Shown here: piece by piece, positions 5,629 to 44,147 of the stretch
Numbering within the stretch: the first letter of the stretch is position 1
Layout of the letters: each line of letters starts with the position of its first letter
NCBI GenBank assembly: GCA_043754535.1
Contig: JAYUUN010000005.1
Coordinates: 1 to 63,378, forward strand
Direction of reading: 5' to 3'
Source of the DNA: Chloroflexota bacterium
Lineage (GTDB): Bacteria > Chloroflexota > Chloroflexia > QHBQ01
DNA: 63,378 nucleotides
Made by a program: the position numbers and the translations under genes
The notes under the pieces: model-generated
What the model was told of the DNA's origin: nothing
What the model saw: only the letters and a program-made list of their open reading frames with translations
Database searches by the model: none

Positions 5629-6246
5629 CTACGGCTTGAGCGGGCGGGCTGCTACCCCTTGCGGGCCGAAGCGGGCGACCACCAGTGCCTCTAGCCGAGT
5701 GCGGTATTCGCCAGCCGCCTTGAGGCTGCCAATATCACGACCCCGACGGGCAAGCACGGTGTTGGCCCAGAGCAGGCAGAGTTCCGCCGCCTTCAGCACC
5801 AGCCAGAGGGCGTACTGCTCTGGCGCATCGCTGGTGGCCGGGTAGCTGTCGCTGAAGTGTTGGAGGTCGTAGGCAGCATAGACGGTGAGGTTAGCCGGGC
5901 CTGCCTCTGCCGCGAGCAGGGGGCGGCTGAACAGCAGCACGCTGCCGAACATCCGATAGCTGAGGGCGGCACTGCTGGCGGTGTTGGGGTCGGCGGCCTC
6001 ATCGCGGTTGAGCCTGCGCCCAGCCAATTCCACGCTGAGTACGCTGCGGCAACCCGGCACCGCAAGGGCGCGCTGGCCCAGCACCGGGCTGTAGCTATCA
6101 TCGCGCAGGGTAGGCAGGTGTTGCGAGAGCCAGTCAATCGCCTCATTGAGCTTCTGCTTACGCAGGCTATCATCCCAGATGTAGCCGTCGCGGTCACCCA
6201 GTTCGTTCGCCAGTAGTGCGCTGGTGCTGGTCAGTTCGATAGTCAT
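5629..6246 (-). CDS. Putative phage head-tail adaptor/head-completion protein
   Basis: Last gene of the portal operon; AAGGAG RBS; N-terminal L.D....W.D..L...LNEAI pattern resembles head-completion proteins. Function inferred from context. Confidence 0.5.
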   Translation of the reverse strand: MTIELTSTSALLANELGDRDGYIWDDSLRKQKLNEAIDWLSQHLPTLRDDSYSPVLGQRALAVPGCRSVLSVELAGRRLNRDEAADPNTASSAALSYRMFGSVLLFSRPLLAAEAGPANLTVYAAYDLQHFSDSYPATSDAPEQYALWLVLKAAELCLLWANTVLARRGRDIGSLKAAGEYRTRLEALVVARFGPQGVAARPLKP

Positions 6247-6311
6247 CTTGTTGCTCCTTTCGAGCTAGGGGTTGCTGGTTGGTGCGGCTGCGGCTACGCT
6301 ACTAGGCCCAG

Positions 6312-6857
6312 CTAGAGGCGGCCCATGCGGTAGGCGCGCACGTGTTGCAGGAGGCTGCCAGGGCAGGTGGTGTCGTTGTGCGGTAGTTCGCAGTGGCCGT
6401 AAACCTCGTGGTCGGTGACGAGCAGAGCGCGCTGGCGGGCGAGGCTATCGAGGTACCAGCGCAGGCTGAGTAGCTGGGCGGCAGTTGGCTGCTGCCAGCT
6501 ACCGTTGGGCAGCACCCCCGCATCTACCAGGATTGCCAGGCTGCGCTCGTTGGCGGGCGAATGGGCGTGCCAGGTGACCACTTCGAGCGGTTGGGTGAGA
6601 TAAACGACCCCGCTGGCCCCAATCACGCGGTGGTACATCAGGCCGAAGCCGCCAACCCCACCGCCCCAGTCCTTGCGGATGTGATAGCGGGCGAAGTCGC
6701 GGATGCGGGCTAGCTCGTCGTGCGGCTGGTCGGGGCGGGGCGGATAGCCCGTCCAATGTACGGCCACCTCGCTGATCTGGCCGAGTGGTCGTAGTACGAG
6801 GTTGGGGCTGGCCGCTATGCGCGGTATGTCGTTCACGATGTTGACGATCTGGGGCAT
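6312..6857 (-). CDS. N-acetylmuramoyl-L-alanine amidase (Amidase_2/PGRP fold), endolysin-like
   Basis: VAVHWT, YH, WHA..AN, GH...T.CPG zinc-amidase motifs; no signal peptide; ATG overlaps the portal stop (TGATG). Confidence 0.85.
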   Translation of the reverse strand: MPQIVNIVNDIPRIAASPNLVLRPLGQISEVAVHWTGYPPRPDQPHDELARIRDFARYHIRKDWGGGVGGFGLMYHRVIGASGVVYLTQPLEVVTWHAHSPANERSLAILVDAGVLPNGSWQQPTAAQLLSLRWYLDSLARQRALLVTDHEVYGHCELPHNDTTCPGSLLQHVRAYRMGRL

Positions 6858-8146
6858 CACCCACCTCCTTGGGTGGCGGTTTCGCCAATAGCATCCTCTA
6901 CCTGGGCCGCATCGTGGATACCACGGTCGAACAACTGGCTCTCCACTGCCACGCGCTGGGCCAACTCCTGAGGCAATAGGGGCGGCCAGGTGATGGTCAG
7001 CACGGCTTCGCTAACGTCGGCGATGCGGCGGTGGCCGAAGCGTCGCCACTGGTCGAGGATCAGCCAGGCGCGGCGGCGCACCATGCTGCCCCAGCCGATC
7101 TGCTTACGGGCCACCTTTTGGGTGAGGGGTTGCAGTTCGAGTTCGAGGGCTATGCCACTGCGGTTGCCGCCACTGACTTCGCCGAAAGCGATGCGCGGCA
7201 TCTCTGCCAGGTCGTGGAAGACGCGGTAGAGAGCTTCGATGTAGCGCAGGTGTGCGCCAGCCGAGCCGCCACCCAGGAAGTCGAGCAGGTAGGCGCGAGC
7301 AGCGGGATTCTCCAAAGTCCAGAGTTGACCGGGGCCAACGCTGAGGTTGGCGGTCGCCTCCTGGGTCGCCCCAGAGACGACCGCTGCGGGGTTGCCGCTG
7401 GCCTCCAACAGGCGGCTGAGGGTAGAGAGGCGGCGGTTGAGTTCGTCCTGCACCCCTAGCAGCGGCTCAAGGTCGCTCATGCCCCAGGGCGATTTGGGGA
7501 TCGGCTGGTTGGCAAAGAAGATGAAGGGGATGTAGCCGTAGGGGTTGGGGCCGTCGCTGGTAGCCGCGCCGTTCTCGCGGATGATTAGCCGCGCATCCGT
7601 CCACTCCTCCTCGTAGGCCACGCCGCCACTGACATAGCGGTAGGTGAGGGCGGTCAGCCTGCGGTTGTTGCCGCCCCAGACCGGCTCCACGTTCATCACA
7701 TCGCAGGCATCCACCTGCACTCGCCCCTCAGCCGCGCTCCACAGCACGCGATAGCAGCCGTCGCCGAGGACGGCAGCATCAACGGCGGTGGCGTAGTCGA
7801 GGGCGGGCAGGTCGTTGTCGTCGGCGGTCTGCTGGTAGAGGCGGCCAAACCAGGCGGCCTGCTTGGCCGAAACCTGTGCGTAGCTGACCAGGGCGGGCCG
7901 AGCGGTGAGGTAAGTGGCCGCTTTGAGGACGAAGGCTTGCACGTAGTTGAAGGTGAGGCGGGTCTCGCGGCCACGCGCCTGGCCGAACCACTGCTGACCG
8001 TTGTAGAAGTCGAGCAACATCTGGTAGTGCGCCCGTCCCGCTGGAGCCGCCACACCCTCCCCCCAGCCGCTGGGGGCAAACCCGCCCGCAGCCCACCGCC
8101 GCGCCAACTGCTGCGGGCTGATCGCCGTAGAACCATAGTAAGTCAT
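6857..8146 (-). CDS. Phage portal protein (SPP1 gp6-like)
   Basis: FYNGQQW, LTFNY, NPYGYIPF..F.N, WGMSDL..L...QDELN, SGIAL motifs; start placed at ATG 8146 behind a GGGAGG RBS. Confidence 0.88.
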   Translation of the reverse strand: MTYYGSTAISPQQLARRWAAGGFAPSGWGEGVAAPAGRAHYQMLLDFYNGQQWFGQARGRETRLTFNYVQAFVLKAATYLTARPALVSYAQVSAKQAAWFGRLYQQTADDNDLPALDYATAVDAAVLGDGCYRVLWSAAEGRVQVDACDVMNVEPVWGGNNRRLTALTYRYVSGGVAYEEEWTDARLIIRENGAATSDGPNPYGYIPFIFFANQPIPKSPWGMSDLEPLLGVQDELNRRLSTLSRLLEASGNPAAVVSGATQEATANLSVGPGQLWTLENPAARAYLLDFLGGGSAGAHLRYIEALYRVFHDLAEMPRIAFGEVSGGNRSGIALELELQPLTQKVARKQIGWGSMVRRRAWLILDQWRRFGHRRIADVSEAVLTITWPPLLPQELAQRVAVESQLFDRGIHDAAQVEDAIGETATQGGG

Positions 8147-8251
8147 TGGTATTCCCTCCCTTTGCGGCAAACAAGCGCGGCGCACCCACAGATGTGGCTC
8201 GCGCTGCCTTGCCGCCACCGCCCTTTACTGGCAAGCGCAGTGCGGTTGGAG

Positions 8252-8309
8252 GGCAAGCAAAAAGCGCGGTTCCACCCTGGTCTGGGTGGCCGCGCAGTGC
8301 TTGCTACGG
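8252..8309 (-). terminator. Leader terminator of the portal operon carrying the 21-nt motif shared with the capsid operon
   Basis: Minus strand CCGTAGCAAGCACTGCGCGGCCACCC-AGACCA-GGGTGGAACCGCGC-TTTTTGCTTGCC. Confidence 0.7.
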
Positions 8310-8346
8310 TCAAGTATTCTGGTTCAGTCTTGTCGAACCTGACCAC

Positions 8347-8375
8347 ATTGTAGCACAATAGCACCTAATTGTCAA
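8347..8375 (-). promoter_or_regulatory. sigma70-type promoter of the portal operon
   Basis: TTGACA-17 bp-TACAAT with extended TGTG; same architecture as 44119-44147. Confidence 0.75.
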
Positions 8376-8430
8376 GGGGTGGCTAGCGAATGGGGGCAAG
8401 TGGCTGGCATAGAGGCGGTGACCAGGGGCG

Positions 8431-8620
8431 AACAAAAACGCGACTGCCCTTGTCGGTAGTCGCGCCGTGTCTTCTTGTTGTGTTGCAAAGCTACAAGTCT
8501 GCGGCCAAACCCATCTTCGTAAGGCGGGGCCGTAAGCGGCTTGTTACTTGTCCTCCGGACGAGCTAACGGCTCTCCATCTTCGCAGGGTCGCGTCGCGGG
8601 TACGAACGGTGAACGTCGGA
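8431..8620 (-). ncRNA. Candidate ~190-nt structured ncRNA or attenuator leader
   Basis: Bounded by TTGACT-17-TATAAT (8654-8626) and terminator CGCGACTACC-GACAAG-GGCAGTCGCG-TTTTTGTT; no credible ORF inside. Confidence 0.55.
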
Positions 8621-9048
8621 CTAGCATTATACGTTATGTTGGGGCAGGAGTCAAGTAGTTTGGCCTAAATTGGGCAGATTTGGGGGTCGCTGCCCGCCGC
8701 CCACTCAGCAAGCAGGCAGGGATGGAGGTGCTGCCACAATCTACACCTAAAGTTGGTTGCCAGAGGGTAGGGTAAGCTGCTATAATGGGGCATAGTTTGT
8801 ACTTTGAGAGGAGAGCAGCCCATGTCAGTCGCCACCCGCCAGTTTACCCCAGAGTGCGCCCGCTGATCTAGCTTGCCAGTCCTGGCTACCCCGCAGCAAC
8901 TTACCAATCAGGGCGTGACCCACGCGCCCGACTAGTTGCCTGCCCGCGAACCGCCTTCCAGCCTCACGCACTCCCAGCTTGCCGCCTCCAATCGGGGGCA
9001 AAGATGCTCTCCCCTGGGAGGGATAGGTGACGTGAAAGAGGTTCTGTT

Positions 9049-10311
9049 CTGACTAGACTTGATGCTACCCGCCTCTACCTGCTGGTGGCAGTAGGCTTTC
9101 GCTTCGTTATGGGCCTGACCTGGACGACCTTCCCCCTCCACCTGATCAACGACATCCACCTCGACCCCCTGCAACTGGTGCTGGCGGGTACGGCCATTGA
9201 GGGTGCGCAGTTCCTCGCCGAAATCCCGACTGGCATTGTTGCCGACGTGTACAGCCGCCGCCTATCCGTGATCATCGGCTACCTGGTGCTGGGGGCGGGC
9301 TTCATCGCCCTCGGCATCGCCACCAATTTCGCAGGCGTGCTGGTCGGGCAGGTGGTACTCGGCTTGGGCTGGGCCTTCATCAGCGGGGCGTTCACCGCCT
9401 GGCTCACCGACGAGGTGGGTGAGGCGCGCCTGGGCGACATCCTCTTGCACGCATCGCAAATCAGCATCCTCGGCGGTCTGGTTGGCAATGTAGTGGGGGT
9501 CGCCCTGGGGTTGGTCAGCCTGACCCTGGTACTGGTGCTGGCTGGTGGGCTGTTGATTTTGATTGCGGGTCTGATGTGTCTGCTGATGCCAGAACACAAC
9601 TTCAGCCCGATCCGCCGCGAGGTTGGGCAGGGCAACTTGCGGACGATGCTGACCACTGCCACCGTCGGCCTCAAGGTGGTGCGGGGGAGACCGCTAGCCT
9701 CGGTGGTCGTGGCAGTCGGCTTCTTCCTCGGCTTGTTCAGTGAGGGGCCAGATCGCCTCTGGCAGCAGCATTTGATTACCAACATCAGCTTCCCCAACAT
9801 TGGCTGGAACGTGATCATCTGGTTCGGCTTGATCGACACCATTACCGCCGTCCTCTTTTACTTCGTCGCGGGTTACATCCGCTCACGGCTGCCGATGGCA
9901 AGCAGCAGCCACCTGATCCGCGCCCTACTCGTCGTCAGCAGCCTGATGACTGGGGCGTTGTTCGGCTTCGCCCTCGCGGGCAACTTCGTCTTTGCGGTGA
10001 TCAGCAAAGAGCTACTCACCGTCAGCAGCAACGCCCTCGAACCCCTCTACGACACCTGGATCAATCAGAATCTCGACTCGCGGGTGCGGGCCACCGTGCT
10101 TTCCCTCAGCAGTCAGCTTCGCTCCCTCGGCGAGATCACTGCTGGGCCGATTGCAGGGGTGGTCGGCAACAGCTTCGGCCTGCGGGCGGTGATGTTGCTC
10201 GCCACCACGATGCTGCTCCCCGTGCCACTGTTGTTTGCCTACGCCAGCCGCCGCCCCAAGCCGGAGGTTGACGTGGTGGGGCGGCCAGGCCTGGCCCCTA
10301 AGCTAGATTAA
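9049..10311 (+). CDS. MFS transporter (TetA(P)-like efflux family), copy 1
   Basis: About 12 TM helices, EIPTGIVADVYSRR motif; start extended to CTG 9049 by identity with the paralog's 5' end (alternative GTG 9085). Confidence 0.88.
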   Translation: MTRLDATRLYLLVAVGFRFVMGLTWTTFPLHLINDIHLDPLQLVLAGTAIEGAQFLAEIPTGIVADVYSRRLSVIIGYLVLGAGFIALGIATNFAGVLVGQVVLGLGWAFISGAFTAWLTDEVGEARLGDILLHASQISILGGLVGNVVGVALGLVSLTLVLVLAGGLLILIAGLMCLLMPEHNFSPIRREVGQGNLRTMLTTATVGLKVVRGRPLASVVVAVGFFLGLFSEGPDRLWQQHLITNISFPNIGWNVIIWFGLIDTITAVLFYFVAGYIRSRLPMASSSHLIRALLVVSSLMTGALFGFALAGNFVFAVISKELLTVSSNALEPLYDTWINQNLDSRVRATVLSLSSQLRSLGEITAGPIAGVVGNSFGLRAVMLLATTMLLPVPLLFAYASRRPKPEVDVVGRPGLAPKLD

Positions 10312-10328
10312 GAAAGAGGTACCTTGTT

Positions 10329-11630
10329 TTGACTAGACTTGATGCTACCCGCCTCTACCTGTGGGTAGAGGGGGCGATGTCCTTCCTCTCGGCTCTAACC
10401 TGGACAGTATTCGCGGTCTACCTGGTCAAGGAAGCACGGCTTGACCCGCTGCAACTGGTGCTGGTTGGCACCGCTACCGAGGTGACCGCCTTCTTCTGCG
10501 AAATCCCGACGGGGGTGGTGGCTGACCAATACAGTCGCCGCCTGTCGGTGGTGATCGGTCACCTGCTGCTGGGGGTGAGTATGTTCGCCCTCGGCTTCAC
10601 CACCAACTTCGCACTAATCATCCTCACCCAGGTAGTAAGCGGGGTCGGCTACACCTTCGTCAGCGGGGCGTTTGCGGCCTGGCTGACAGACGAGGTGGGT
10701 GAGGAGCGGGTGGGCGATATCTTCCTGCGCTCGTCGCAGATCGGGACGCTGAGCGGCCTGCCGGGGATCGTGGCGGGGGCGGCCATTGGGCTGCTGGGGC
10801 TGGGGCTGCCGCTGATCGTCGGCGGGCTGCTGATCATATTGCTGGCTGGGGCGATGGCTCTGCTAATGCCAGAGACGGCCTTCCAGCCAGCCCCGCGCAA
10901 CCCACAACACAATGCAGTGCAGGCGATGTTCGCCACCTTTGAGCTGGGGCTGCGGGCGACGCAGGGGAGACCGCTCGCGTTGCTGGTGCTGGCGGTGGGC
11001 TTCTTCTTCGGTGCGTTCAGCGAGGGCTTTGACCGCCTGTGGGAGGCGCACTTCATCACCAACTTCAGCTTCCCCGACCTGTTGGGCAATGCGGTGCCAG
11101 TGGTCGTTTGGATAGGCATCATCCGAGTGCTGGGTAGCATCAGCGGCTGGTTGGCGGCTGGCCTGGCCCGCAGGCGGGTGGACACGAGCAACATCCGCGC
11201 CATAGTGGAGGCTCTGTTCTGGGTCAACTGCCTGTTGGTGGGCGCGCTGTTCGGCTTTGCGCTGGCGGGCAACTTCCTGCTCGCGCTGATCGCCCTCGAA
11301 CTGGTGGGGGTGACGCGCACGGTCAACGGCCCGCTCTACGACACCTGGCTGAACCAGAACCTGGACTCGCGGGTGCGGGCTACTGTTCTCTCGATGAGCA
11401 GCCAGCTTGATGCGCTGGGCCAATTCGCGGGCGGGCCAGCGGTGGGGCTGCTAGGCAACAGCTTTGGTATCCGCACTGCGCTGGTAGCCTCGGCCTGCCT
11501 GCTGACCCCGGTAATCCCCCTGTTTGCGTACGCCAGCCGCCGCGCAAAGGGGCAGGGGGGCGCGCTAGCAGCGGAGCCAGCGGAGCTAGCGGAGCCAGCG
11601 GAGCTAGCAGAGGTAGCAGAGGTGGCTTGA
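10329..11630 (+). CDS. MFS transporter (TetA(P)-like efflux family), copy 2
   Basis: EIPTGVVADQYSRR; clear paralog of the upstream gene; C-terminal AEP/AEL 9-bp tandem repeats. Confidence 0.9.
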   Translation: MTRLDATRLYLWVEGAMSFLSALTWTVFAVYLVKEARLDPLQLVLVGTATEVTAFFCEIPTGVVADQYSRRLSVVIGHLLLGVSMFALGFTTNFALIILTQVVSGVGYTFVSGAFAAWLTDEVGEERVGDIFLRSSQIGTLSGLPGIVAGAAIGLLGLGLPLIVGGLLIILLAGAMALLMPETAFQPAPRNPQHNAVQAMFATFELGLRATQGRPLALLVLAVGFFFGAFSEGFDRLWEAHFITNFSFPDLLGNAVPVVVWIGIIRVLGSISGWLAAGLARRRVDTSNIRAIVEALFWVNCLLVGALFGFALAGNFLLALIALELVGVTRTVNGPLYDTWLNQNLDSRVRATVLSMSSQLDALGQFAGGPAVGLLGNSFGIRTALVASACLLTPVIPLFAYASRRAKGQGGALAAEPAELAEPAELAEVAEVA

Positions 11631-11760
11631 GGCAGTCAGGCTGCCAGTCAGCGGCTAGCAGAGGAGGCGGTCAGTAGTGACTGCCTTCAGCCGCCCTGCA
11701 AGTTGGCGGCGCGAAACCTGCTATGCTGCTGCCAGTGATGATGGCTAAGGAGGGACGAGT

Positions 11761-12441
11761 ATGGACACGATCTACCTGGTACGGCATGGGCAGTCTACCT
11801 GGAACGCAGAGGGCAAGCACCAGGGTTGGGCGGAGCCACCGCTGTCGGAGCTTGGCGTGCGTCAGGTGGCGGCGACGGGGCAGCGGCTGGCGCAGAAGGA
11901 CTTCACGGCGGTAGTCAGCAGCCCTACTACTCGCGCTTTGCAGACGGCGCAGGCGATTGCGAAGCTGGCTGGCTTTGGGGGCGAGATCGCTACTGACCCC
12001 GACCTGCGCGATGCCCGCCGCTCGGCCAGCCGCGAGGGGGGGACGTACACGCCAGAGGAAATCCAGACTGTGCGCGGCGACCTGGACTTCAAGTTCGCGG
12101 ACGGCGAGAACAGCCGCGAGTTCATCGCCCGCACGGTGGCGGCCTGGGAGCGGCTGGCGCAGAGCTTCACTGGCACGGCCAATATCCTGTTGGTCACCCA
12201 CGGGATGAACGTCAAGGTGATGTTGCTCAACGCGCTGGGTTTGTTGCCGCAGGTTGACCACAACCCCTTCCTGGTCAACCACGCGATGCGGCTGAGCAAT
12301 TGCGGCCTGACCATCCTCAACCACGACCCGAAGTGGGAGCATGAGGGGGGTATCTACCGCATGACCGCCTTCAACGACACCGGCCACATCGAACTGGCGG
12401 GCCTGGAGTCGCCGCTGACTGCCTCGGCAACGGAGCCGTAG
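11761..12441 (+). CDS. Histidine phosphatase (phosphoglycerate mutase family)
   Basis: LVRHGQS, SSP..RA.QTA, LVTHG, NDTGH. Confidence 0.9.
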   Translation: MDTIYLVRHGQSTWNAEGKHQGWAEPPLSELGVRQVAATGQRLAQKDFTAVVSSPTTRALQTAQAIAKLAGFGGEIATDPDLRDARRSASREGGTYTPEEIQTVRGDLDFKFADGENSREFIARTVAAWERLAQSFTGTANILLVTHGMNVKVMLLNALGLLPQVDHNPFLVNHAMRLSNCGLTILNHDPKWEHEGGIYRMTAFNDTGHIELAGLESPLTASATEP

Positions 12442-12485
12442 GTTGGGGATACGTCAACCAGGGGCAGCGGGGTGGCGGCTAGCGA

Positions 12486-12503
12486 CGTATGTACACACAT
12501 ATG
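12486..12503. promoter_or_regulatory. Candidate parS site, copy 3
   Basis: CGTATGT-ACAC-ACATATG, 16/18 match to the palindromes inside parB; intergenic. Confidence 0.6.
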
Positions 12504-12517
12504 CGTCAGGCTGAAGG

Positions 12518-14193: not shown

Positions 14194-14392
14194 CGTGAGG
14201 TTCTCCTTGTCAATGCTACTGAACAACGGGGTAAACACTGCCCCAGCTACCAGGGTTGGAGTTAGAGGGGCTAGCAAGCTCGATTATAGCACGCGCTGCC
14301 ACTGCGAGTGGTACGCCGCGGGCTGGCTGCTGGATTGCTGTCCACAGAGCCAGGCAATCTGCGCTAATGTAGCAAATATGTGCAAAAAGCTA

Positions 14393-14422
14393 TTGACATT
14401 AGAAACCATGTTCTGGTATAAT
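14393..14422 (+). promoter_or_regulatory. sigma70-type promoter P1 upstream of parA
   Basis: TTGACA-18 bp-TATAAT. Confidence 0.65.
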
Positions 14423-14636
14423 GACCTTGCAAGCAAGCAAGCGCAGTGCGAGTTAGCAGGGTAGCATAGGCTATCACACCTGGGGCGTATCCCTGTCGGC
14501 CTCAAACTGAGCATTGGGCAGTGTGCCTGCACTTCAGATTGTGTGCTATCCTACGCAATGTGGGTTGTCAGGGCCAGGATTGCGGCTTTGCAGCAAGGGA
14601 AAGGCAACATTAGTTAGTAATTGGCTGCAAAAGGTA

Positions 14637-14665: not shown

Positions 14666-14745
14666 CTATGTGGCACGTGTTATGTTTACTTCGATGTTAA
14701 TTGTCGGGCGGGTACGTGCGCCGCCAGCACGAAAGAGAGCCGACC

Positions 14746-35477: not shown

Positions 35478-35579
35478 CTATACTCCCACCCTGCTCCCCT
35501 TACCAGGGGGCGGCGGGGGAGCGGAAGAAGGTAGCTCCACCCGCGTGTGGTAGGACAGGAACGGAAGAAGGCAACCGCA

Positions 35580-36791: not shown

Positions 36792-36877
36792 TGGCCGTCA
36801 GCCACCGCCGCCTGGCCCTTTGGCCGCCACCCCCTGCGTGACCGCCGCTTGCTAGTGGTTATAATGCGGGCAACGGC

Positions 36878-36914
36878 CCACCTCCCATCCACCTCCCATC
36901 CACCTCCCATCCAC
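36878..36914 (+). repeat. 11-bp tandem repeat (CCACCTCCCAT x3)
   Basis: Read directly; lies in the 5' UTR of the GH15 gene. Confidence 0.85.
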
Positions 36915-36934
36915 AGCAACGGAGCCAACCCATT

Positions 36935-39016
36935 ATGCCACGTGACCTACCGCTCGGCAACGGCAGTATGCAGATCAACTTTGACCCGCAGTACAACCTG
37001 CGCGATATCTTCTGGCCGCACGTCGGCAAGGAGAACCACACGGCGGGCAATATCAACCACACTGGCGTATGGGTCAGCGACGACGGTAGCGGCCAGCCCG
37101 CCTTCGCCTGGTTCGAGGATGCTGAGTGGCAGCGCGACCTGCGCTATCGGGATGAGACGATGGTCACGGCAGTGACGATGCAGAACGACCGCCTCGGCCT
37201 GCACCTGCTCTGCGAAGACACGGTGGACTTCGACCGCGACACCTTCATCCGCCACTTTGTCGTCCACAACCTGCGCGACATCCAGCGTTCCGTCCGCTTC
37301 TTCTTCCACTACGACTGGTACATTTATGGTGAGGCGGTCGGCGATACTACCTACTATCAGCCGACACACGGCAGCCGCCCCGGTGAGTTCCTGGTCGCCT
37401 ACAAGAGCAACCGCTACTTCGTCCTCAACGCCCAGGTGGGCCGCAAGGTGGGGATTAGCAGTTGGGCAAACGGCGTAAAGGGGGTGGGCGGCCTGCTCGG
37501 TACCTGGAAGGACGCGGAGGACGGCCAGCTAGCCTGCGGCAATATCGCCCAGGGGTCAGTAGACTGCACCCTCGGCGTACACCTGGACAACGTACCTGCG
37601 GGCGGCACCGTCACCTTCTACCACTGGCTCTGCGCGGGCTACAGCTTCCAGGACGTAGAGCGCGAAGACCGCAGGGTGCGCGAACGTGGCCCCGCCAGCT
37701 TCCTCGAACGCACCGCCAACTACTGGCACCGCTGGGCCAACAAGCTGCCAATGGACTGGGCCGACCTGCCCGCCGACCTGATCACTGCCTACAAGCGCAG
37801 CCTGCTCGTCCTTCGCACCCAGGTAGACGATCATGGGGCGGTGATCGCCTCCACCGACTACGACATCCTCACCTTCGCCCGCGATAGTTACTGCTATATG
37901 TGGCCGCGTGATGCTGCCCTCGTCATCTACGCCCTCGACGAAGCGGGCTTCCAGGACCCGGCGCGGGGGCTGTTCACCCTCATCGCCCGCATCATGCGCC
38001 CAGAAGGCTATCTCCTGCACAAGTACGACCCGGAGGGCGCACTCGGCTCCTCCTGGCACCCCTGGGCCGACAGCAAGGGCAACCCCCAGTTGCCCATCCA
38101 GGAGGACGAGACTGCCCTGATCATCTATGCCATGTGGCACCATTACGAGAAGTACCACGACTTTGAGTTCGTCTCCCAGTTCTACAGTCGGGTGATCAAG
38201 GCGGCGGGCGACTTCATGGTAAGCTATCGCCACCTCGCCACCCGCCTGCCTGGCCCCTCGCACGACCTCTGGGAGGAGCGGCGCGGTATTAGCAGCTTCA
38301 CCGTCGGCGCGGTCTGGGCGGGCCTGACGGCGGCAGCCAACTTCGCCGAGATGTTTGGCGACCTCAACCTCGCCGACGAGTACCGCACTGCCGCCCGCGA
38401 GATCAAGAACGCCTGCGTGCGCTTTATGTTCGACCAGGAGGGCGGCTACTTCGTCCGCCAACTGGCAGTGCATGACGACGATACGACCAGCCAGGACTGC
38501 ACCGTAGATGCCAGCGCGACCGGCCTCTTTCAGTTCGGTATGTTCGCCGCCGACGACCCGCTGATCGTCTCTACTATGCAGGCGATCAAGGAGAAGCTGG
38601 TGATCCCCACCCCCGTTGGCGGGGTCGCCCGCTATCAGTCCGACTACTACCAGCGGGTTAGCCAGGACGTGACTGGCAACCCCTGGTTCATCTGCACCCT
38701 CTGGCTGGCCGACTACTATATCGCGGCAGCTCGCAATCTGGCCGAGATGGAGCCTGCCCTCGACCTGCTGCACTGGGTCTGCCAGCACAGCCTGCCCAGC
38801 GGGGTGCTGGCCGAGCAAATCCACCCCTACACTGGTGCGCCGCTCTCTGTTTCGCCGCTCACCTGGAGCCATGCCGCCTACGTTACCACTACCTTGCGCT
38901 ACGTGCAGAAGCGGCAGACCTTCTTTCTGCAAGCAAAAATAGGCAGTAGTGACCTCAAAATCAAGCAGCTAACTCCTGCTGGCCCGGTTATTGGTATGGG
39001 GGAGTCAGACAGATGA
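36935..39016 (+). CDS. Glycoside hydrolase family 15 (glucoamylase/trehalase-like)
   Basis: Y.YMWPRD, QEDET, DLWEER, LAEQ, PLTWSHA. Confidence 0.92.
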   Translation: MPRDLPLGNGSMQINFDPQYNLRDIFWPHVGKENHTAGNINHTGVWVSDDGSGQPAFAWFEDAEWQRDLRYRDETMVTAVTMQNDRLGLHLLCEDTVDFDRDTFIRHFVVHNLRDIQRSVRFFFHYDWYIYGEAVGDTTYYQPTHGSRPGEFLVAYKSNRYFVLNAQVGRKVGISSWANGVKGVGGLLGTWKDAEDGQLACGNIAQGSVDCTLGVHLDNVPAGGTVTFYHWLCAGYSFQDVEREDRRVRERGPASFLERTANYWHRWANKLPMDWADLPADLITAYKRSLLVLRTQVDDHGAVIASTDYDILTFARDSYCYMWPRDAALVIYALDEAGFQDPARGLFTLIARIMRPEGYLLHKYDPEGALGSSWHPWADSKGNPQLPIQEDETALIIYAMWHHYEKYHDFEFVSQFYSRVIKAAGDFMVSYRHLATRLPGPSHDLWEERRGISSFTVGAVWAGLTAAANFAEMFGDLNLADEYRTAAREIKNACVRFMFDQEGGYFVRQLAVHDDDTTSQDCTVDASATGLFQFGMFAADDPLIVSTMQAIKEKLVIPTPVGGVARYQSDYYQRVSQDVTGNPWFICTLWLADYYIAAARNLAEMEPALDLLHWVCQHSLPSGVLAEQIHPYTGAPLSVSPLTWSHAAYVTTTLRYVQKRQTFFLQAKIGSSDLKIKQLTPAGPVIGMGESDR

Positions 39017-39041
39017 AGTAGCTCGTGGGGGGTATTGCAGC

Positions 39042-39701
39042 ATGAGTAGGATCGTTGACCTTAGCCACCCGGTCGAGGAGCAGATGCCCAACTACCCTGG
39101 GCGGCTTGCCCCCCTGTTTGGCATAACCGAAGAAGCCACCGTGGTCGCCAGCGAGCAGCCAGGCAGCCCCTTCCTGATCAACCGCTTTGGCTTCGATGGC
39201 GATCTCGGCACCCACCTGGATGCCCCCCACCACGTCTTCCCCACTGGCCTGGACGTTGCTAGCCTACCGCTTGACCGCCTCGCCAACCTGCCAGGCGTAG
39301 TCGTCAACATCAGCCGCCAGCCTGGGCGCGCCATTGGCCCCGCCGCCTTCACCGACCTGGAACTAGCGGGTCGGGCCGTGCTGCTCCGCACCGACTGGTC
39401 GGTACGCTGGTCGATCCCCTCCTACTGGCGCAACGCTCCATACCTGACCGCAGAGGGGGCCGCCCACCTGGTCGCGCAAAGGGTGGCCCTGGTCGGCATC
39501 GATTGCGGCAGCATAGACGACCGCAGCAACCCCCACAAACCGGCCCACACCCTGCTGCTGGCTGCTGATATCCCGCTGATCGAGCAATTGACCAACATTG
39601 CTGTGCTAGGCAACGACTTCTTCCGCTTCTTCGCCGCCCCCATCGCCCTACGCGGAGCCGCCTGCTTCCCCGTGCGCGCCTTCGCCATCATCGAGGGCTA
39701 G
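39042..39701 (+). CDS. Cyclase family metal-dependent hydrolase (KynB-like)
   Basis: IVDLSH, GTHLDAP.H, LVGID..SID, H..LL, PVRAFA. Confidence 0.88.
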   Translation: MSRIVDLSHPVEEQMPNYPGRLAPLFGITEEATVVASEQPGSPFLINRFGFDGDLGTHLDAPHHVFPTGLDVASLPLDRLANLPGVVVNISRQPGRAIGPAAFTDLELAGRAVLLRTDWSVRWSIPSYWRNAPYLTAEGAAHLVAQRVALVGIDCGSIDDRSNPHKPAHTLLLAADIPLIEQLTNIAVLGNDFFRFFAAPIALRGAACFPVRAFAIIEG

Positions 39702-40231
39702 CCAATCGCCAGGTGTTCGAGCAGCAGCACGGTGACCAGCCAGCCGAGGTTGGGCAGGCAGTCGGTTTGCAGCCGCTCATGCCACTGGTGCAGGTAGACG
39801 TTGTAGCTGCCGCCCTCTGGCAGGTCGAGGTTCGCGCCCACCCCCGCCCCGCCGAGGTCGTAGAAGGCAGCCAGGCTAGCCCGCATGGCTGCCCCGCTGC
39901 GGCCCGCCGGTGCGCCACTGCGGGTCAAAGCACCATCGCGGCAATCCAGTTCGACCAGCCACAGGCGCGGGCTGGCGGTAGTACCCAGCGTCCACCGCTG
40001 CTGCTGGCGCACGGCCCCTACGTACTCGGTCAGCAGGTCGCCAGCCGTCTGCACCGCCGGGGTGTTCAGCACAAGAGTGCGCTGCATCTCCAGCCGCCCC
40101 GGTCGGGCGAGATAGAACTCCTGGGCCAGCCCGCCCCCCACCGTCGCGTGGCTGAGGCGCATATCCCAGCCAGGTAGGGTAGGGTCGCCCACTGCGTAAA
40201 GCTCCTGTACTGCATCCTCATAGTTGCTCAT
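39698..40231 (-). CDS. Hypothetical protein downstream of the terminase
   Basis: ATG behind AAGGAGAAG; co-oriented with the terminase. Confidence 0.6.
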   Translation of the reverse strand: MSNYEDAVQELYAVGDPTLPGWDMRLSHATVGGGLAQEFYLARPGRLEMQRTLVLNTPAVQTAGDLLTEYVGAVRQQQRWTLGTTASPRLWLVELDCRDGALTRSGAPAGRSGAAMRASLAAFYDLGGAGVGANLDLPEGGSYNVYLHQWHERLQTDCLPNLGWLVTVLLLEHLAIG

Positions 40232-40318
40232 CGCTTCTTCTCCTTCGCAGCAGGTAGGGGTCACCTCGTGCTGCATATGCTGGTCTAGCCTTTGCTCACA
40301 TCGCCGTTGCTTGCCCAC

Positions 40319-41749
40319 CTAGAGGTAGGAGCGCACCGTCGCCCCACTCGGCTGCTCCTTCTTCTTCGGCTCGTCCAACAAGACGCAGAGGCTAGCACTG
40401 ATTACCAGGTCGTCGTGCAAGGTTGCACCCGGCACTTGCCAGCGCAACTGCTTGCTCGTCCCCACCACCTCGGCTTGCAAGTTGGCCGCTTGCTGCCAGA
40501 AAAGGCGGCTCTCCGCTGCCCCCTCGTCCACATATTCCTTGTAGCGGCCCTGCTCGATGCAGGCCAGCCACCGCCAGCCCAGGTCGCTCTTGCTCTGCGC
40601 TGTAAAGGTGAACTTGCGGACGCGCTCACCCAATGCCGCCTCCAGGTGGCTAGCGATGCCCATGCCCAGCCCCGTCGCGTCCACCACCAGCCGCTCCGCC
40701 CGCCAGTGGTCGGCCAGGGCCAGCACCTGCTGCTCAAGGTCTACGTGGTTCGCGCCCTGCCAGCTACGGCGGTCTACCACCTGGTAGGCGGGTAGGCCGC
40801 GCCCGCTCGCCACCATCTGCACGACGGTCAGGGCGGTGCTGTCGCGGCGGGGATTGCCACTGCGCCGCTCGGCCTCATCCGCCTCGGCCTCGCCCCCCAC
40901 GTCGAGCAGCAGCGCGTAGCGGCCAGCGGCCTGTGGCTCCCGCTGGCGGTCGTGTTCACCGTGCATTAGGGCTAGCTTTGCCGCGTCCAGCATCGCGCCG
41001 TTGCCGTCGTACTCCTCCAGGCAGTACTCGGTGCGAATGAAGGGGTGCTGCGCGCCAAGCTGGGCGATCCGCGCCTGCACCCGCCGTCCATACGCCTCCA
41101 CCGTTGCCGCCACCTCCTCCCAGCGCACCCGCCAGAGTTGCTGATAGCCTGCTTCAGCCTGGGCCAGAGCGTAGCGGCGTTCGCGGGCCAGCAAGCTGTG
41201 GCTGTTCCAGGGCGTGCCGAAGAACACCGTTGTCGCATCGGTGGCCGCCGCCATCGGGTCGAAGCGCGCATCCCACACGTCGGGGTCAACATCCTGGGCT
41301 TCGTTGCAGAGCAGCAGCAGGTCGGCAGTATCGCCGCGCACGTTCGCGCTCTCTGCCGCACTCAGGTAGACCGCACTGGCCGCCCCAAGCTGCACCCCCC
41401 GCGTCCCCTCCTTCCGTACCTCCCCCGCGAAGGCCGAGTTCTGCAAGCGCGTCAGCAGGCGGCGGCGGCTGATTGCCCCCTGACCCTCAGTCGGGTTCGC
41501 CATCACCACCCGCCCACCGCTCTCGCAGCGCAAAACCAGCAGGTAAGCGATAGTCTGGGCGATCAACTCGTCCTTGCCGCTCTGCCTGCTAAACTCGATC
41601 ACGAACCTGCGCCCCCAACCACCCAGCACACTCGCCACAATCGCCTCCGCCGGGCCAAGCTGGTAGCCCCGCAATGGCAGCTTCAGCTCCTGCTCGCTGA
41701 ACATCGCCAGCCCCGTCAGCGGCTCTGGCCCCTTGTTCTCTGTTGCCAT
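40319..41749 (-). CDS. Terminase large subunit
   Basis: Walker A SRQSGKD, Walker B-like LLLCNEAQ, motif III FGTP, nuclease LLLDVGG, VDATGLG, HDDLV. Confidence 0.85.
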   Translation of the reverse strand: MATENKGPEPLTGLAMFSEQELKLPLRGYQLGPAEAIVASVLGGWGRRFVIEFSRQSGKDELIAQTIAYLLVLRCESGGRVVMANPTEGQGAISRRRLLTRLQNSAFAGEVRKEGTRGVQLGAASAVYLSAAESANVRGDTADLLLLCNEAQDVDPDVWDARFDPMAAATDATTVFFGTPWNSHSLLARERRYALAQAEAGYQQLWRVRWEEVAATVEAYGRRVQARIAQLGAQHPFIRTEYCLEEYDGNGAMLDAAKLALMHGEHDRQREPQAAGRYALLLDVGGEAEADEAERRSGNPRRDSTALTVVQMVASGRGLPAYQVVDRRSWQGANHVDLEQQVLALADHWRAERLVVDATGLGMGIASHLEAALGERVRKFTFTAQSKSDLGWRWLACIEQGRYKEYVDEGAAESRLFWQQAANLQAEVVGTSKQLRWQVPGATLHDDLVISASLCVLLDEPKKKEQPSGATVRSYL

Positions 41750-41866
41750 AGTTCCCCCCCTTCCCTCACCAACACTGTTGTACAGCCGTTCACCAACCGC
41801 CAGCCACTACCCGCCAGCCGCCCTGCCCTGATCTGCGCATCTGCTGGCTGCATCCGCTGCAACCGC

Positions 41867-41881
41867 TGGCACGCCTTTTGC
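41867..41881 (+). promoter_or_regulatory. Candidate sigma54 (-24/-12) promoter
   Basis: TGGCACG-CCTT-TTGC with exact GG-N10-GC spacing, 40 bp before ATG 41921. Confidence 0.5.
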
Positions 41882-41920
41882 CCTAGTAGTCGGCATAACG
41901 AGCAAAGAGGTGAAGTTACA

Positions 41921-42226
41921 ATGACTGAGCCAACCCCAGATGCTATCCGCAACGAGTCCGGTGTCCACCAGGACAGCCCCGAAGGCGCGCCCGGTGTACA
42001 ACGCACTGCCGCCGAGCGTGGCTACCCTCCCGAACCCGACCGCATCGCCGCCATTGGCTTTGGCGACAGTAAGCCAGAGACGATTGGCCGCACCGAGCAG
42101 GAGCGCGAACGCTTCATTGGCCTGGTCGGGATGAGCGGTCAAATGCGCGACGAGATGGGCATGGATCGCATCGTAGACGAAGCTGAAGACCAGGCCCAGC
42201 CCTTCAGTGAAGAAAAGTCTAGCTAA
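41921..42226 (+). CDS. Small acidic hypothetical protein
   Basis: GAGGTG RBS; MTEPTPDAIRNES...; hydrophilic. Confidence 0.7.
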   Translation: MTEPTPDAIRNESGVHQDSPEGAPGVQRTAAERGYPPEPDRIAAIGFGDSKPETIGRTEQERERFIGLVGMSGQMRDEMGMDRIVDEAEDQAQPFSEEKSS

Positions 42227-42260
42227 CCAAACCAACCAGATAGCCGAAAGGAACAACCCC

Positions 42261-42776
42261 ATGCCAGACCACGCCAGCGAGATTGGCCGCGACGAGCGTA
42301 GCCACGAGGAGAAGTTGCAGGATCGCGGCATCTCCCCCACCGAACACCCCGCCATGGACGAGAACCTGGGCAATCCCGACTATCGGGTGGCCCAGCATGG
42401 CACCCAGGGCCAGACTGAGGACGACAGCGACGACAACAGCGACGGCCAGCACACCTATAGTGAGGGTAAGCCGCAGCCACCAGCCAGGAAGGTAGCCCGC
42501 ATGGCAGCCGAAGTCGAAGCCGAAGCCGAGGCCAAAGACAGGCCGCAGAACCAGTTGGAGGAGGAGCAGGAACACCACCTCTCCGAGCAGAGCCAGCGTG
42601 ACCGCGACGAGACCACCGCCCCCAATGCTGGCAAGGGCCAACATGACCGCAACAGCGACCGCAGACAGGTGGAGGCCGAAACCATCAACCAGCAGCGGCG
42701 GTTAGCCACAACCAGCACTGCCCACAAAGAGGGGACGCGCAAGCACGTCCCCTTCTCCATGCCAGCCCCGGTTTAG
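42261..42776 (+). CDS. Acidic, likely disordered hypothetical protein
   Basis: AAAGGA RBS; D/E/Q/H-rich; stop overlaps the capsid stop. Confidence 0.7.
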   Translation: MPDHASEIGRDERSHEEKLQDRGISPTEHPAMDENLGNPDYRVAQHGTQGQTEDDSDDNSDGQHTYSEGKPQPPARKVARMAAEVEAEAEAKDRPQNQLEEEQEHHLSEQSQRDRDETTAPNAGKGQHDRNSDRRQVEAETINQQRRLATTSTAHKEGTRKHVPFSMPAPV

Positions 42777-43654
42777 CGCACCCCCTTCAGGCGGGCCAGG
42801 GCCGCATCGCGGAAGTTCGCCAGCCCAACGTACCACTTTAGCCGCGTGCGGCTAGCATCCTTCGCCTCCAGCGGGCCAAGCCGCTCCACCTGTATCCCCC
42901 CGTTGTCCAGCCCCATTACGCCGCGCTCGTAGCCGAACTGAAGCGCGTAGATGCTAGAGCAGTCGTTGCTGCTGCCCATCACCTCCGCGTCGCCGATGTT
43001 GTCGTCCACCTCAATCGGGATGCCGTTGTAGTAGCTCTGGCTAATGCCAAACTCGTCGGGGCTGCTAGCCACCGTGCCAGTAGTACGCGCCAGCCGGGTC
43101 AGGCTGCGGCGGCTGCGGCGGCTCATCAGCAGCAGATCGGGCTTGCCAGGGCGCACCTGGTCGAGCAGCGCATCCAGCAAGTCCAGGGTCAATGCCCCCC
43201 CGTTCGGCCCCACCGTCGCCGTCTGGCCCACCGCTGCCAGCTTCGCCAGCCCGTCGAACCCGTTGCTGTCAGCGTCTACGTCGCCGTTGATGAAGTTGGC
43301 CGCGAACTTGTAGCCGACAGCCCGCGCCTTCGCCTCAATCACAGTCGCCTCCAGGTCGTTGATGTTGGCGTAGGTCTGCTGCAAAAAGTTATCCACATCC
43401 GCGTCGCCACCGAGGATCGCCAGGCTCGCCTGCTTGCGGGCGAAGGTCGGCGTACTCTCAATCCAAACGTCGCCCACCGCGTGAAACTCTACGGTGCCAT
43501 GAGTCAACACCTGGTTGTATTGCAGGCTGCTGCCGTTGATCGTCATGAAGGGCAGGTACTTGAGTACGGGGCTGGTCGTGGTCATCGTCTCCACCACCCC
43601 CTGCAACATCATGCTCTGGCTCAAGTTCGCCGCCTCGATAATTGTCAGTGCCAT
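42773..43654 (-). CDS. Phage major capsid protein (HK97-fold type, about 293 aa)
   Basis: LPF..I.G....YN, LGGDADVD.F, FINGD.....FDGL, L.L..LD.L.D.V, YNGIPI, SSIY, R.KWY; ATG behind GGAG. Confidence 0.85.
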   Translation of the reverse strand: MALTIIEAANLSQSMMLQGVVETMTTTSPVLKYLPFMTINGSSLQYNQVLTHGTVEFHAVGDVWIESTPTFARKQASLAILGGDADVDNFLQQTYANINDLEATVIEAKARAVGYKFAANFINGDVDADSNGFDGLAKLAAVGQTATVGPNGGALTLDLLDALLDQVRPGKPDLLLMSRRSRRSLTRLARTTGTVASSPDEFGISQSYYNGIPIEVDDNIGDAEVMGSSNDCSSIYALQFGYERGVMGLDNGGIQVERLGPLEAKDASRTRLKWYVGLANFRDAALARLKGVR

Positions 43655-43700
43655 AGTCAGTTCTCCATTCTTGAAACTAGCTGTTGCTTGCCACCCCTGC

Positions 43701-44006
43701 TCAGCGACCCCGCCGCAGGGCCAGCCCAATCTTAGCTGCTGCGCCAAGCGGCCAGGGCGCGGTCTGCTCCTGTCGCACCACGTTGACTGCTGGCACGCTC
43801 GGCGCGGTCGAGGTCAGGCTAGCCCGCACCTCGCCGTAGATCGCCACCGTGCGCGCCAACGCCGCGTCCAGTGCCACCTTGCTCTCGCCCGCCACCAGCC
43901 CATGCAGCGCAGGCACACCCGCCACCGCCGACCCCGCGATCACCTGCCCGCGATAGCCCGCCAGCAACTCGGCCATCGCTGCCTGCGTGTCTGTCGTTTC
44001 GTCCAT
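43701..44006 (-). CDS. Small helical protein upstream of the capsid (putative scaffold)
   Basis: AGGAGGT RBS; first gene of the capsid operon. Function inferred from position. Confidence 0.6.
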   Translation of the reverse strand: MDETTDTQAAMAELLAGYRGQVIAGSAVAGVPALHGLVAGESKVALDAALARTVAIYGEVRASLTSTAPSVPAVNVVRQEQTAPWPLGAAAKIGLALRRGR

Positions 44007-44039
44007 CTCATACCTCCTTGCAAAAAGCCCCTCGCCGCA

Positions 44040-44109
44040 GGCAAACAAAAAGCGCGACTGGCCCTGCCACCCAATGGTGAAAGAGTCAGCCGCGCAGTGC
44101 TTGCTACGG
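44040..44109 (-). terminator. Leader terminator of the capsid operon carrying the shared 21-nt motif
   Basis: Minus strand CCGTAGCAAGCACTGCGCGGCTG...CAGTCGCGC-TTTTTGTTTGCC. Confidence 0.7.
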
Positions 44110-44118
44110 AATACGATT

Positions 44119-44147
44119 ATTGTAGCACAGATGCTCTCTTTTGTCAA
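44119..44147 (-). promoter_or_regulatory. sigma70-type promoter of the capsid operon
   Basis: TTGACA-17 bp-TACAAT with extended TGTG. Confidence 0.75.

Follow-up and report, generated by a model that had tools for sequence, protein, structure and literature searches.

What keeps a set of phage head genes in a bacterial chromosome when its parts lie far from one another, among ordinary host genes and with no tail to go with them? The question is raised by the window studied here, a 63,378-nucleotide (nt) stretch from a Chloroflexota bacterium (assembly GCA_043754535.1, contig JAYUUN010000005.1, positions 1 to 63,378), which holds portal, amidase and adaptor genes at 5629-8146 (locus A) and scaffold-like, major capsid and large terminase (TerL) genes at 40319-44006 (locus B and the TerL unit). 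A first-pass annotation of this DNA had taken these genes for a candidate gene transfer agent (GTA)-like system that is maintained. Few lineages are known to possess domesticated phage particles, which arose separately in each; one of them, RcGTA (Rhodogtaviriformidae, Alphaproteobacteria), has the full tail, head spikes and tail fibres of a siphovirus-like particle and is regulated by CtrA and GafA. Among the papers listed in literature searches on GTAs, satellites, prophages and viriforms of the group, we found no published account of the Chloroflexia genes described here.

In what follows, "kit" denotes the phage head and packaging genes, all of which lie on the minus strand of the window. 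We propose, with a probability of roughly 0.6, that the kit is a domesticated DNA-packaging head of phage origin in four dispersed units, three of them in the window and one on contig C47 of the same assembly, and that it represents a local and reduced form of a class-wide Chloroflexia set derived from a very small podovirus-like element. The parts of this set would be a TerS-like (terminase-small-subunit-like) protein, a small membrane protein, TerL, portal, SU10-type adaptor, scaffold, HK97 capsid and amidase, joined in other families by a P22-gp10-like nozzle, a MuF-like minor head protein and a holin.

Results

Four units of a head and packaging kit

The genome under study (G000) is represented by a 3.87-Mb assembly that is 88.9% complete and was compared with that of G001, a sister species of the same genus (g1) with 99-100% identical RpoB. 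Protein families of the kit genes were assigned by profile searches against Pfam and PHROGs; the ratio of nonsynonymous to synonymous change (dN/dS) and the synonymous change per site (dS) were calculated by NG86 between G000 and G001. These searches, together with the ESM Atlas, bore out the gene assignments of the first-pass annotation and its intact frames in both pieces of the window, the scaffold assignment being the weak one (Table 1). The adaptor gene of G000, which encodes 205 amino acids (aa), has no match in Pfam or PHROGs and was recognized by an ESM Atlas feature score of 0.96 and by its structure (template-modelling (TM) score 0.74 to a cluster of which 79% is PF24175), and its orthologues in relatives match PF24175 directly. 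For the 101-aa scaffold-like protein the alignment with the scaffold family of relatives is weak (hhalign E 4.8e-4, probability 32%) and that family itself matches phrog_1793 weakly, while the gene occupies the position of the scaffold gene in relatives. The capsid gene, the sole PF05065 match in the assembly, probably starts at the ATG at 43654, the longest open reading frame (ORF) extending to 43747. The start of the amidase gene overlaps the stop of the portal gene; in relatives, the amidase gene follows the capsid gene. GC content at third codon positions is 0.78-0.84 in kit genes, like that of host ORFs.

Table 1. Features of the kit loci in the window and on contig C47, with the matches and statistics that describe them.
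Feature	Position	Strand	Evidence	dN/dS
SU10-type head-to-tail adaptor, 205 aa	5629-6246	-	ESM Atlas	0.10
N-acetylmuramoyl-L-alanine amidase (Amidase_2), 182 aa	6312-6860	-	PF01510 E 4.7e-12; phrog_1493 endolysin	0.097
Portal protein, 429 aa	6857-8146	-	PF05133 E 1.5e-21; phrog_64 E 2e-31	0.071
Second, degenerate hairpin in leader A	8164-8215	-	fold of 8147-8240 z only -1.08; weak	
Leader hairpin A, terminator-like	8253-8304	-	RNA fold -37 kcal/mol, z -4.07, 0/200 shuffles as stable	
21-nt leader box, copy A, CCGTAGCAAGCACTGCGCGGC	8289-8309	-	exact match	
Promoter A	8347-8376	-	TTGACA, 12-nt gap, extended -10 TGTGCTACAAT; pattern match	
Protein after TerL, probably 192 aa (39698-40276)	39698-40318	-		0.095
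Large terminase TerL, 476 aa	40319-41749	-	PF17289 E 1.3e-5; phrog_2 E 3.9e-10	0.058
Hydrophilic small host gene 1, outside kit	41921-42226	+	between capsid and TerL; 0 stops	0.20
Hydrophilic small host gene 2, outside kit	42261-42776	+	between capsid and TerL; 0 stops	0.11 (N-terminal part)
HK97-fold major capsid, 293 aa from ATG	42773-43654	-	phrog_212 E 1.6e-66; PF05065 E 8e-11	0.045-0.074
Scaffold-like protein, 101 aa	43701-44006	-	directly upstream of capsid gene	0.18
Leader hairpin B, terminator-like	44041-44104	-	fold -37.3 kcal/mol, z -5.75, 0/200 shuffles	
21-nt leader box, copy B	44089-44109	-	exact match	
Promoter B	44119-44148	-	TTGACA, 12-nt gap, TGTGCTACAAT; 11/12 consensus matches, TG present	
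TerS-like gene	C47:3684-4055		123 aa, Zn-ribbon/helical	0.094

Scaffold, capsid and TerL had been taken for one operon. This was not confirmed, because two real plus-strand genes stand between capsid and TerL; TerL and the gene after it therefore make up a unit of their own, which brings the number of units to four. Both intervening genes have good ribosome-binding sites, and their products matched no Pfam family. The product of the gene at 42261-42776 is highly charged and of low complexity, with an insertion or deletion of ~165 nt between G000 and G001. Two minus-strand ORFs of this region (42219-42644 and 41807-42373) were rejected as genes, with dN/dS values of 3.9 and 1.3 and with stops. 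In metatranscriptome run X1, available as contigs only, 13% of the sampled words were present; two contigs cover 42094-42605 with 0-1 mismatch, the only stretch part covered at 99% or more, and none covers kit genes, the other pieces being fragments of 22-39 letters; the run is uninformative on kit expression.

TerL keeps its Walker A, Walker B and nuclease motifs in all 15 aligned relatives where these are covered. The protein after TerL has only 2 homologues among 5.8 billion proteins and yielded no confident fold (Atlas model with a predicted local distance difference test (pLDDT) value of 0.32, no usable neighbour). Its position is that of a 192-193-aa family in the sister genus g2, yet no similarity was detected, and comparison by hhalign with two protein families of relatives gave probabilities of 1% (family 10) and 10% (family 7).

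Scanning the assembly for the leader described below led to a third locus, on contig C47, where the leader heads an operon consisting of a 54-aa membrane ORF, the 123-aa TerS-like protein and a 60-aa C-terminally anchored protein; a GT-C host gene follows. We take these genes for the start of the ancestral TerL operon because homologues of the TerS-like and membrane genes precede TerL in relatives. The name TerS-like comes from this position alone, since a word-index homologue search returned the protein itself only, its AlphaFold2 model (pLDDT 65) found no match in BFVD better than E 0.56, and the only family hint was phrog_10899 (E 0.0077), on the Zn ribbon.

The two pieces of the window lie 31 kb apart and the flanking and intervening genes scanned are host-type, in agreement with the first-pass annotation; they encode GH18, a gluconolactonase-like protein, two MFS transporters, GH15, a cyclase and a glycerol-3-phosphate oxidase. 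As that annotation had also stated, no integrase or repressor occurs among the kit neighbours scanned in the window; the same holds for replication genes, and for all three in genus g3 and the closed genomes of family f5. A direct-repeat scan found none flanking locus A or B, no search aimed at att-like repeats having been made.

A general promoter and a leader particular to the genus

The first-pass annotation had noted the same promoter architecture and an identical 21-nt leader in front of both loci. The promoter pattern CTTGACAA...TGTGCTACAAT does occur twice in the window as against 0.00 expected (100 shuffles), but it is generic: the extended -10 element TGTGCTAYAAT has 128 copies in the G000 genome and therefore represents a strong general consensus, not a private one. 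The genome has 9 sites at which it follows a perfect TTGACA with the right spacing, and 3 of these belong to the kit. The 21-nt box CCGTAGCAAGCACTGCGCGGC is exact in both loci but not confined to them, with exactly three exact copies in the assembly (A, B and C47) and, according to a covariance-model scan, no leader copy upstream of TerL.

The box lies within the 5' strand of a hairpin, at a variable distance from the -10 element (9, 19 and 37 nt). The three loci share a design of stem GCAAGCA/UGYUUGC, internal loop, GCGCGG/CCGCGC stem and U-rich 3' side (in hairpin A the basal stem is GCAAGCA/UGCUUGC, followed by the internal loop, a GC stem and the U-rich 3' side), the apical paired part being wholly different between the loci. 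Hairpins A, B and C47 fold with -37, -37.3 and -50.6 kcal/mol (z-scores -4.1, -5.8 and -4.9), and in each case 0 of 200 shuffles were as stable. Between the promoter and the first gene the leader has a GC-rich hairpin and then a U tract, the layout of a predicted intrinsic terminator or antitermination leader; terminator-like sites at leader B were flagged also by a separate scan. The degenerate second hairpin in leader A resembles the main design as judged by eye.

Between G000 and G001, the box differs at 0 of 63 positions and the rest of the three promoter-leader regions at 33 of 469 (Fisher p = 0.023), and two changes in the leader stem preserve pairing (G-C to G-U and U-A to U-G). Relatives were drawn from an order-level sample of 41 genomes including G000, 11 of them of high quality; tallies for the order include the unpublished genomes G007, G012, G015 and G034, all four of which are excluded from gene-level analyses. 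A covariance model of the leader found 3+3 copies in G000 and G001 and none in the other 39 relatives, further matches (E above 0.01 per genome) not being credible. The leader is hence an innovation of genus g1, as copies exist only in G000 and G001 among the 41 genomes. Rfam returned no family for it at the gathering threshold nor at E up to 0.1. Control by a NusG paralogue of the LoaP/RfaH type was considered and rejected, as only one PF02357 (NusG) match is present in the incomplete assembly.

Purifying selection

All three leader loci recur in G001, as does the TerL unit, with flanks that are syntenic at 90-94% nt identity. The large kit genes show dN/dS values of 0.045-0.18 as compared to 0.05-0.25 for the host flanks, at dS values of 0.11-0.37 and 0.11-0.41, respectively; the two small membrane ORFs reach dN/dS 0.28-0.31. 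That the kit appears to be maintained under purifying selection and not to be decaying, as the first-pass annotation had suggested, is well supported by these values, by the synteny with G001 and by the intact TerL motifs.

A widespread, mostly single-copy set

Among 201 Chloroflexia genomes (156 of high quality, 16 families), the capsid gene was detected at a cut-off of E <= 1e-20 in 90 (65 of the 156 high-quality genomes) and in 10 of 16 families, almost always as a single copy, so that similar genes do exist in other Chloroflexota, as the first-pass annotation had suggested. Per family, the capsid was found in 4/4 (f1), 16/26 (f2), 5/9 (f3), 1/1 (f4), 20/24 (f5), 12/16 (f6), 3/8 (f8), 1/1 (f9), 22/30 (f12) and 5/8 (f13) of the sampled genomes and in none of those from f7, f10, f11, f14, f15 and f16. 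The closest capsid homologues are chromosomal Chloroflexia copies with 48-62% identity, as against at most 42% for cultured phages; intact phages with a patchy distribution as the closest homologues had been named as a finding that would speak against domestication. Within the order, capsid and portal were each found in 28 of the 41 genomes and TerL in 33, mostly in single copy (9, 9 and 10 of the 11 high-quality genomes).

Most relatives in the order carry one ~9-kb block in the order TerS-like, small membrane protein, TerL, (192-aa protein in g2), portal, adaptor, 150-aa protein, scaffold, capsid and amidase, with a holin in G004 and a PF24175 adaptor in family f2. In genus g3 the block occupies one chromosomal site, with a Yip1-domain gene upstream in four species and two cyclophilin genes, YGGT and aquaporin downstream in two, and differing host genes have entered the gap between TerL and portal. 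Here the identity of the kit tracks that of RpoB: the pair G019-G029 has 96% for RpoB, 91% for TerL and 90% for portal, and the pair G005-G011 86% for RpoB, 81% for TerL, 80% for portal and 84% for capsid. The TerL tree recovers host families like the RpoB tree (Shimodaira-Hasegawa-like approximate likelihood ratio test 100 for f2, 98 for f3 and 86 for g1+g2), with g1 on a long branch. In the capsid tree (31 rows), f2 forms one clade (96-98) that is sister to f3, and nine family labels need 9 changes, the minimum being 8.

Dispersal has happened elsewhere, too. Closed f5 genomes have a block of TerS-like, membrane protein, scaffold, capsid, portal, adaptor, TerL, lysin, MuF-like protein (phrog_4728) and a ~600-aa protein, flanked by host genes, to which G115 adds amidase and holin. 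Gene order is permuted among lineages, several of which have the set in separate pieces: TerL and portal lie ~70 kb from capsid and nozzle in the closed genome G041, capsid, portal and TerL are on three contigs in G086, and in the closed two-replicon genome G044 capsid and portal are on C1 (~1.91 Mb) and TerL is on C2 (10401-11711), the most extreme dispersal of the kit that we observed. A mobile element cannot have such a split organisation. Nor is the separation in the window an assembly artefact, since a single contig carries both loci and splits also occur in closed genomes of other families.

The ~600-aa protein occurs in families f5, f6 and f13. It was modelled with low confidence (pLDDT 61), and its best Foldseek matches in the PDB (E 6e-10 to 5e-7, 430-530 columns, TM 0.25-0.37) are nozzle or tail-hub chains, namely those of Pa223, Pan3, P22 gp10 (8eap_D), VP1, Sf6 gp8, Pam1, T7, PhiM1 and SU10; PHROGs gave no match. 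The structural hits are a good lead, not proof, for a P22-gp10-like podovirus nozzle. The first-pass annotation had noted no recognisable tail genes around the two loci, and no tail part beyond the adaptor was found in G000: searches by tblastn with the relatives' holin, families 7 and 10, nozzle, MuF-like protein and other kit-adjacent proteins gave no kit-related match but only generic NlpC/P60 and repeat-domain matches, and the tape measure profile PF10145 has 0 matches in the assembly. Fibres, spikes or a needle were not recognised in any kit examined.

LexA boxes in front of the relatives' kits

A perfect LexA box (AGAAC-N4-GTTCT) stands just upstream of the first kit gene at 9 loci from g2, f3, f5 and f9 (G002b, G003, G004, G008, G010, G095, G111, G115 and G045); the loci scanned, 561 kb in all, contain 15 boxes including these 9. 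The LexA of green non-sulfur bacteria reportedly binds a box of the Gram-positive type. In g2 the box lies within the spacer of a TTGACA/TATAAT promoter, and the lexA promoter of G000 has the same architecture; both lexA and recA of G000 carry the box, near-perfect in recA. Operons of family f2 have the motif TGTCCC-N16-GGGATTAAGTTAATAG in common instead, and behind it comes a LexA box that deviates at one position. Scanning the kit loci of G000 gave no LexA box at up to 1 mismatch, the best sites having 2: in g1 the site at the kit was lost, and the terminator-like leader hairpin is found there instead.

Other perfect LexA boxes of G000 stand ahead of genes identified by eye: one before a GreA-like gene (C28:5589), a pair before a 76-93-aa CxC...CxH (SWIM-like) protein (C84:21211 and 21246) and a pair before a 274-aa protein (C48:19057 and 19114); these genes are possible unusual members of the SOS regulon.

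Discussion

How the kit would work

If the kit is a functional packaging head, transcription would start constitutively at a strong general sigma-A promoter and mostly stop at the leader hairpin, and a factor recognising the box would permit read-through. Scaffold and capsid protein would then form procapsids on the portal, the TerS-like protein and TerL would load them with DNA, the adaptor would close the portal and the amidase would aid release at lysis. From the gene content we infer that the proteins may well assemble DNA-filled heads, and from the LexA boxes of relatives that the ancestral trigger was the SOS response. In the late operon of lambda, a strong constitutive promoter precedes a short leader and a terminator that is overcome by the Q antiterminator, while LoaP and RfaH are NusG paralogues. 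The kit resembles such systems in that a conserved element and a GC hairpin ending in a U-rich tail come within ~10-40 nt of a near-consensus promoter, in front of morphogenesis genes; it differs from them in that we found no antiterminator candidate, one NusG gene, a variable distance to the box and no Rfam family.

The first-pass label of a GTA stands in part. RcGTA and the kit are alike in being phage structural genes fixed in the chromosome without replication or integration modules, and RcGTA and the Chloroflexia set are both single-copy, widespread in a high-rank clade, under purifying selection and spread over several loci. Host regulation with a link to an SOS regulator and release by lysis would be further likenesses, LexA boxes being found here only at the kits of relatives. 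In contrast to RcGTA, the Chloroflexia set is of podovirus type, G000 has no tail part beyond the adaptor, the two share no sequence kinship beyond common folds, and a LexA box (relatives) or a leader hairpin (genus) precedes the genes. The likeness is one of genes, and packaging of random host DNA by the kit is a prediction of the GTA reading. Among the kit neighbours scanned, G000 shows no replication, integration or lysogeny modules, and vertical inheritance with purifying selection is seen, with the discordant g2 as the exception, but a complete particle with a delivery device was not found. Because no tail, nozzle or holin was found in G000, a GTA in the functional sense would be mechanistically incomplete; this tail-lessness argues against a classical GTA. 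A GTA-like "viriform" would be a reasonable label for the evolutionary status of the kit, not yet for its function. To the tail hub of the podoviruses P22, Sf6, SU10 and T7 the set is linked by the PF24175 adaptor and, in f5, f6 and f13, the nozzle-like ~600-aa protein, with the low model confidence and TM scores given above and no nozzle found in the order of G000. A podovirus prophage does not describe G000 either, where the genes are dispersed and no nozzle, replication or lysogeny genes were found.

Observations that speak against it

Several observations weigh against a domesticated head under common control. The role of the leader is predicted from its structure, in two closely related species, and since TerL has no leader, the shared leader would tie together only part of the set. 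The nozzle profile found 0 of the 41 genomes of the order as compared to 5 of 5 control genomes from f5 and f6, and nozzle, tail, tape measure and a recognisable holin were not found in G000 (88.9% complete). In G001, the orthologue of the TerS-like gene (L052, G001:C223) has an in-frame TGA (CAVHR*AKG), which could be a sequencing error, read-through or a recent inactivation.

Vertical descent is likewise only part of the picture. Comparison of gene trees with the host phylogeny, which had been put forward as a check, came out divided: the TerL tree recovers families, but in the capsid tree g1 and g2 stay apart, and within g2 the genomes G004 and G002 have 98% identical RpoB but only 66% identical TerL, 69% portal and 83% capsid. 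G002 holds two kit copies, and G006 (8 contigs) has no capsid, portal or TerL. One g2 contig (L059, G002:C130) of 12,770 bp has a terminal direct overlap of 119 bp and hence represents a circle of ~12.65 kb; it carries capsid, amidase, an XRE-type HTH repressor, a DUF6610 protein, a replication-initiator-like ORF, TerL, portal and adaptor, no nozzle homologue was found in it, and it is a candidate for a tiny phage or a capsid-forming satellite of Chloroflexia. A RepO-like gene lies beside the block in G008 (f3). The IMG/VR contig L078 (10.4 kb), the one locus retrieved in a search with a single TerL protein, has HTH_17, a Zn-finger TerS-like protein, scaffold, capsid, portal, an NlpC/P60 tail-lysin-like protein, a holin (phrog_1299 E 2.5e-11), an 846-aa protein and TerL; like the L059 circle it is nearer to the layout of a podovirus prophage. 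The contents of L059, G008 and L078 mean that the kit family includes small autonomous elements, and because the g2 relatives look mobile, the distribution is not all vertical; part of the class-wide spread may reflect host-restricted infection, not descent.

Alternative explanations

The missing tail could be borrowed. Phage-inducible chromosomal islands of the capsid-forming kind (cfPICIs) are defined, according to PMC10085698, by having capsid, TerL, portal and head-tail adaptor genes but none for a tail or holin, and G000 shares with them terminase subunits, portal, capsid and adaptor of its own. By analogy, adaptor-capped heads of a chromosomally stranded satellite might dock on the tails or nozzles of a helper phage and transduce host DNA, the leader being opened by a helper-phage factor. 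Selection has indeed kept the adaptor, although no nozzle was found in any genome of the order; in g2, the 12.65-kb circle has a satellite-like content of head genes, adaptor, repressor and replication gene with no nozzle homologue, and a constitutive promoter with a terminator-like leader would suit a trans-acting phage antiterminator. Yet cfPICIs such as EcCIEDL933 are described as contiguous mobile islands of Proteobacteria and Firmicutes (PMC10085698; bioRxiv 10.1101/2025.02.11.637232) that carry integrase, AlpA/MerR-type regulator, primase-replicase, HNH, protease and connector genes (PMC10085698), whereas the kit, with pieces 31 kb apart and on another contig, is not self-mobile and has no integrase or primase-replicase near any unit, a scaffold replaces the protease, and relatives have lysis genes. 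The Streptomyces satellites MiniFlayer and Mulch, small elements from hosts of the Gram-positive type which according to PMC10690885 bring their own encapsidation genes and depend on a helper, differ as free satellites of lytic helpers, a comparison by description only. No helper phage is known for the kit, the G000 assembly has neither a second HK97 capsid nor a tape measure gene, and the ancestral control was by the host's LexA and not by a helper. We therefore regard tail piracy as unlikely.

Still less probable, in our judgement, is that the kit is the functionless residue of a podovirus-like prophage or satellite that rearrangements broke up in the ancestor of the genus and that has not decayed yet. 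This would account for the nozzle, holin and LexA box that were lost relative to other families, for the in-frame stop of G001 and for the mobile-looking relatives in g2, and PHASTER-type surveys do call such clusters in metagenome-assembled genomes (MAGs) of Chloroflexi 'incomplete prophages', PMC8597652 listing capsid and terminase fragments in Roseiflexus MAGs under that name. It is difficult to reconcile with dN/dS values of 0.045-0.18 over about 0.13-0.37 synonymous changes per site in at least 8 genes, which equal those of the host flanks, with the retention of all catalytic TerL motifs and of an identical 21-nt box in three separate units, and with independently dispersed sets that are nevertheless kept as single copies in closed genomes of other families. 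Equally improbable to us is a role other than transfer, be it damage-induced altruistic lysis that releases protected DNA or interference with phages, in which terminase, portal or capsid would act as decoys or competitors for phage DNA. The SOS wiring alongside lysis genes (amidase and holin) in relatives, a particle without delivery device in the order and the differing genes gathered in the TerL-portal slot of g3 would fit such an exaptation. On the other hand, no kit protein resembles a known defence protein (no PADLOC scan was made), and a selected packaging motor of TerS-like protein, TerL and portal, together with an adaptor, would most simply make DNA-filled heads. The domesticated packaging head hence remains our preferred reading.

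We put forward only tentatively, and with some doubt, the wider idea that Chloroflexia have an independently evolved, podovirus-type and SOS-wired GTA-like family that is passed down in a large part of the class, reduced to a tail-less, DNA-filled head in the order of G000 and operated in its genus as a small regulon through a private antitermination-type leader. If true, this would be the first GTA-like system of the phylum and of the short-tailed type, and would offer a natural series from a mobile mini-phage to a fully dispersed host organelle. In any case, the Chloroflexia set provides a series for the passage from virus to host device that spans a 12.65-kb circular element and a four-locus, tail-less version; it is mostly single-copy, occurs in 10 of 16 sampled families, has a LexA box in front in at least 4 families and was scattered repeatedly over chromosomes, and once over replicons, without gene loss. 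The 21-nt leader would give a compact handle on its regulator.

Additional observations

In G005 (loci L021-L049; loci L020-L028 for G011), 15 exact copies of GGATTAAGTTAATAG were noted, one of which fronts the portal operon. Most of the others start a C/A-rich element of ~800 nt that is 76-88% conserved and has no conserved ORF (e.g. L045:1400-2260), with an early hairpin loop CGTAGCGCAACA, a terminator-like end and no Rfam match. It may be an undescribed multi-copy RNA or mobile non-coding element with a promoter type common to f2 head operons.

Elsewhere in the window, all on the plus strand, the tandem MFS transporter genes at 9045-10311 and 10325-11630 are a duplicate whose 42 nt upstream are 93% and whose coding parts are ~71% identical, and an 808-aa ORF (52381-54807) contains Thr/Pro/Ala-rich imperfect repeats at 53917-54225, with 8 units of 45 nt. 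The sole Rfam match in the window is a T-box leader (RF00230, 113.7 bits, E 2.4e-24) at 56057-56303, which precedes the ORF at 56321-57220.

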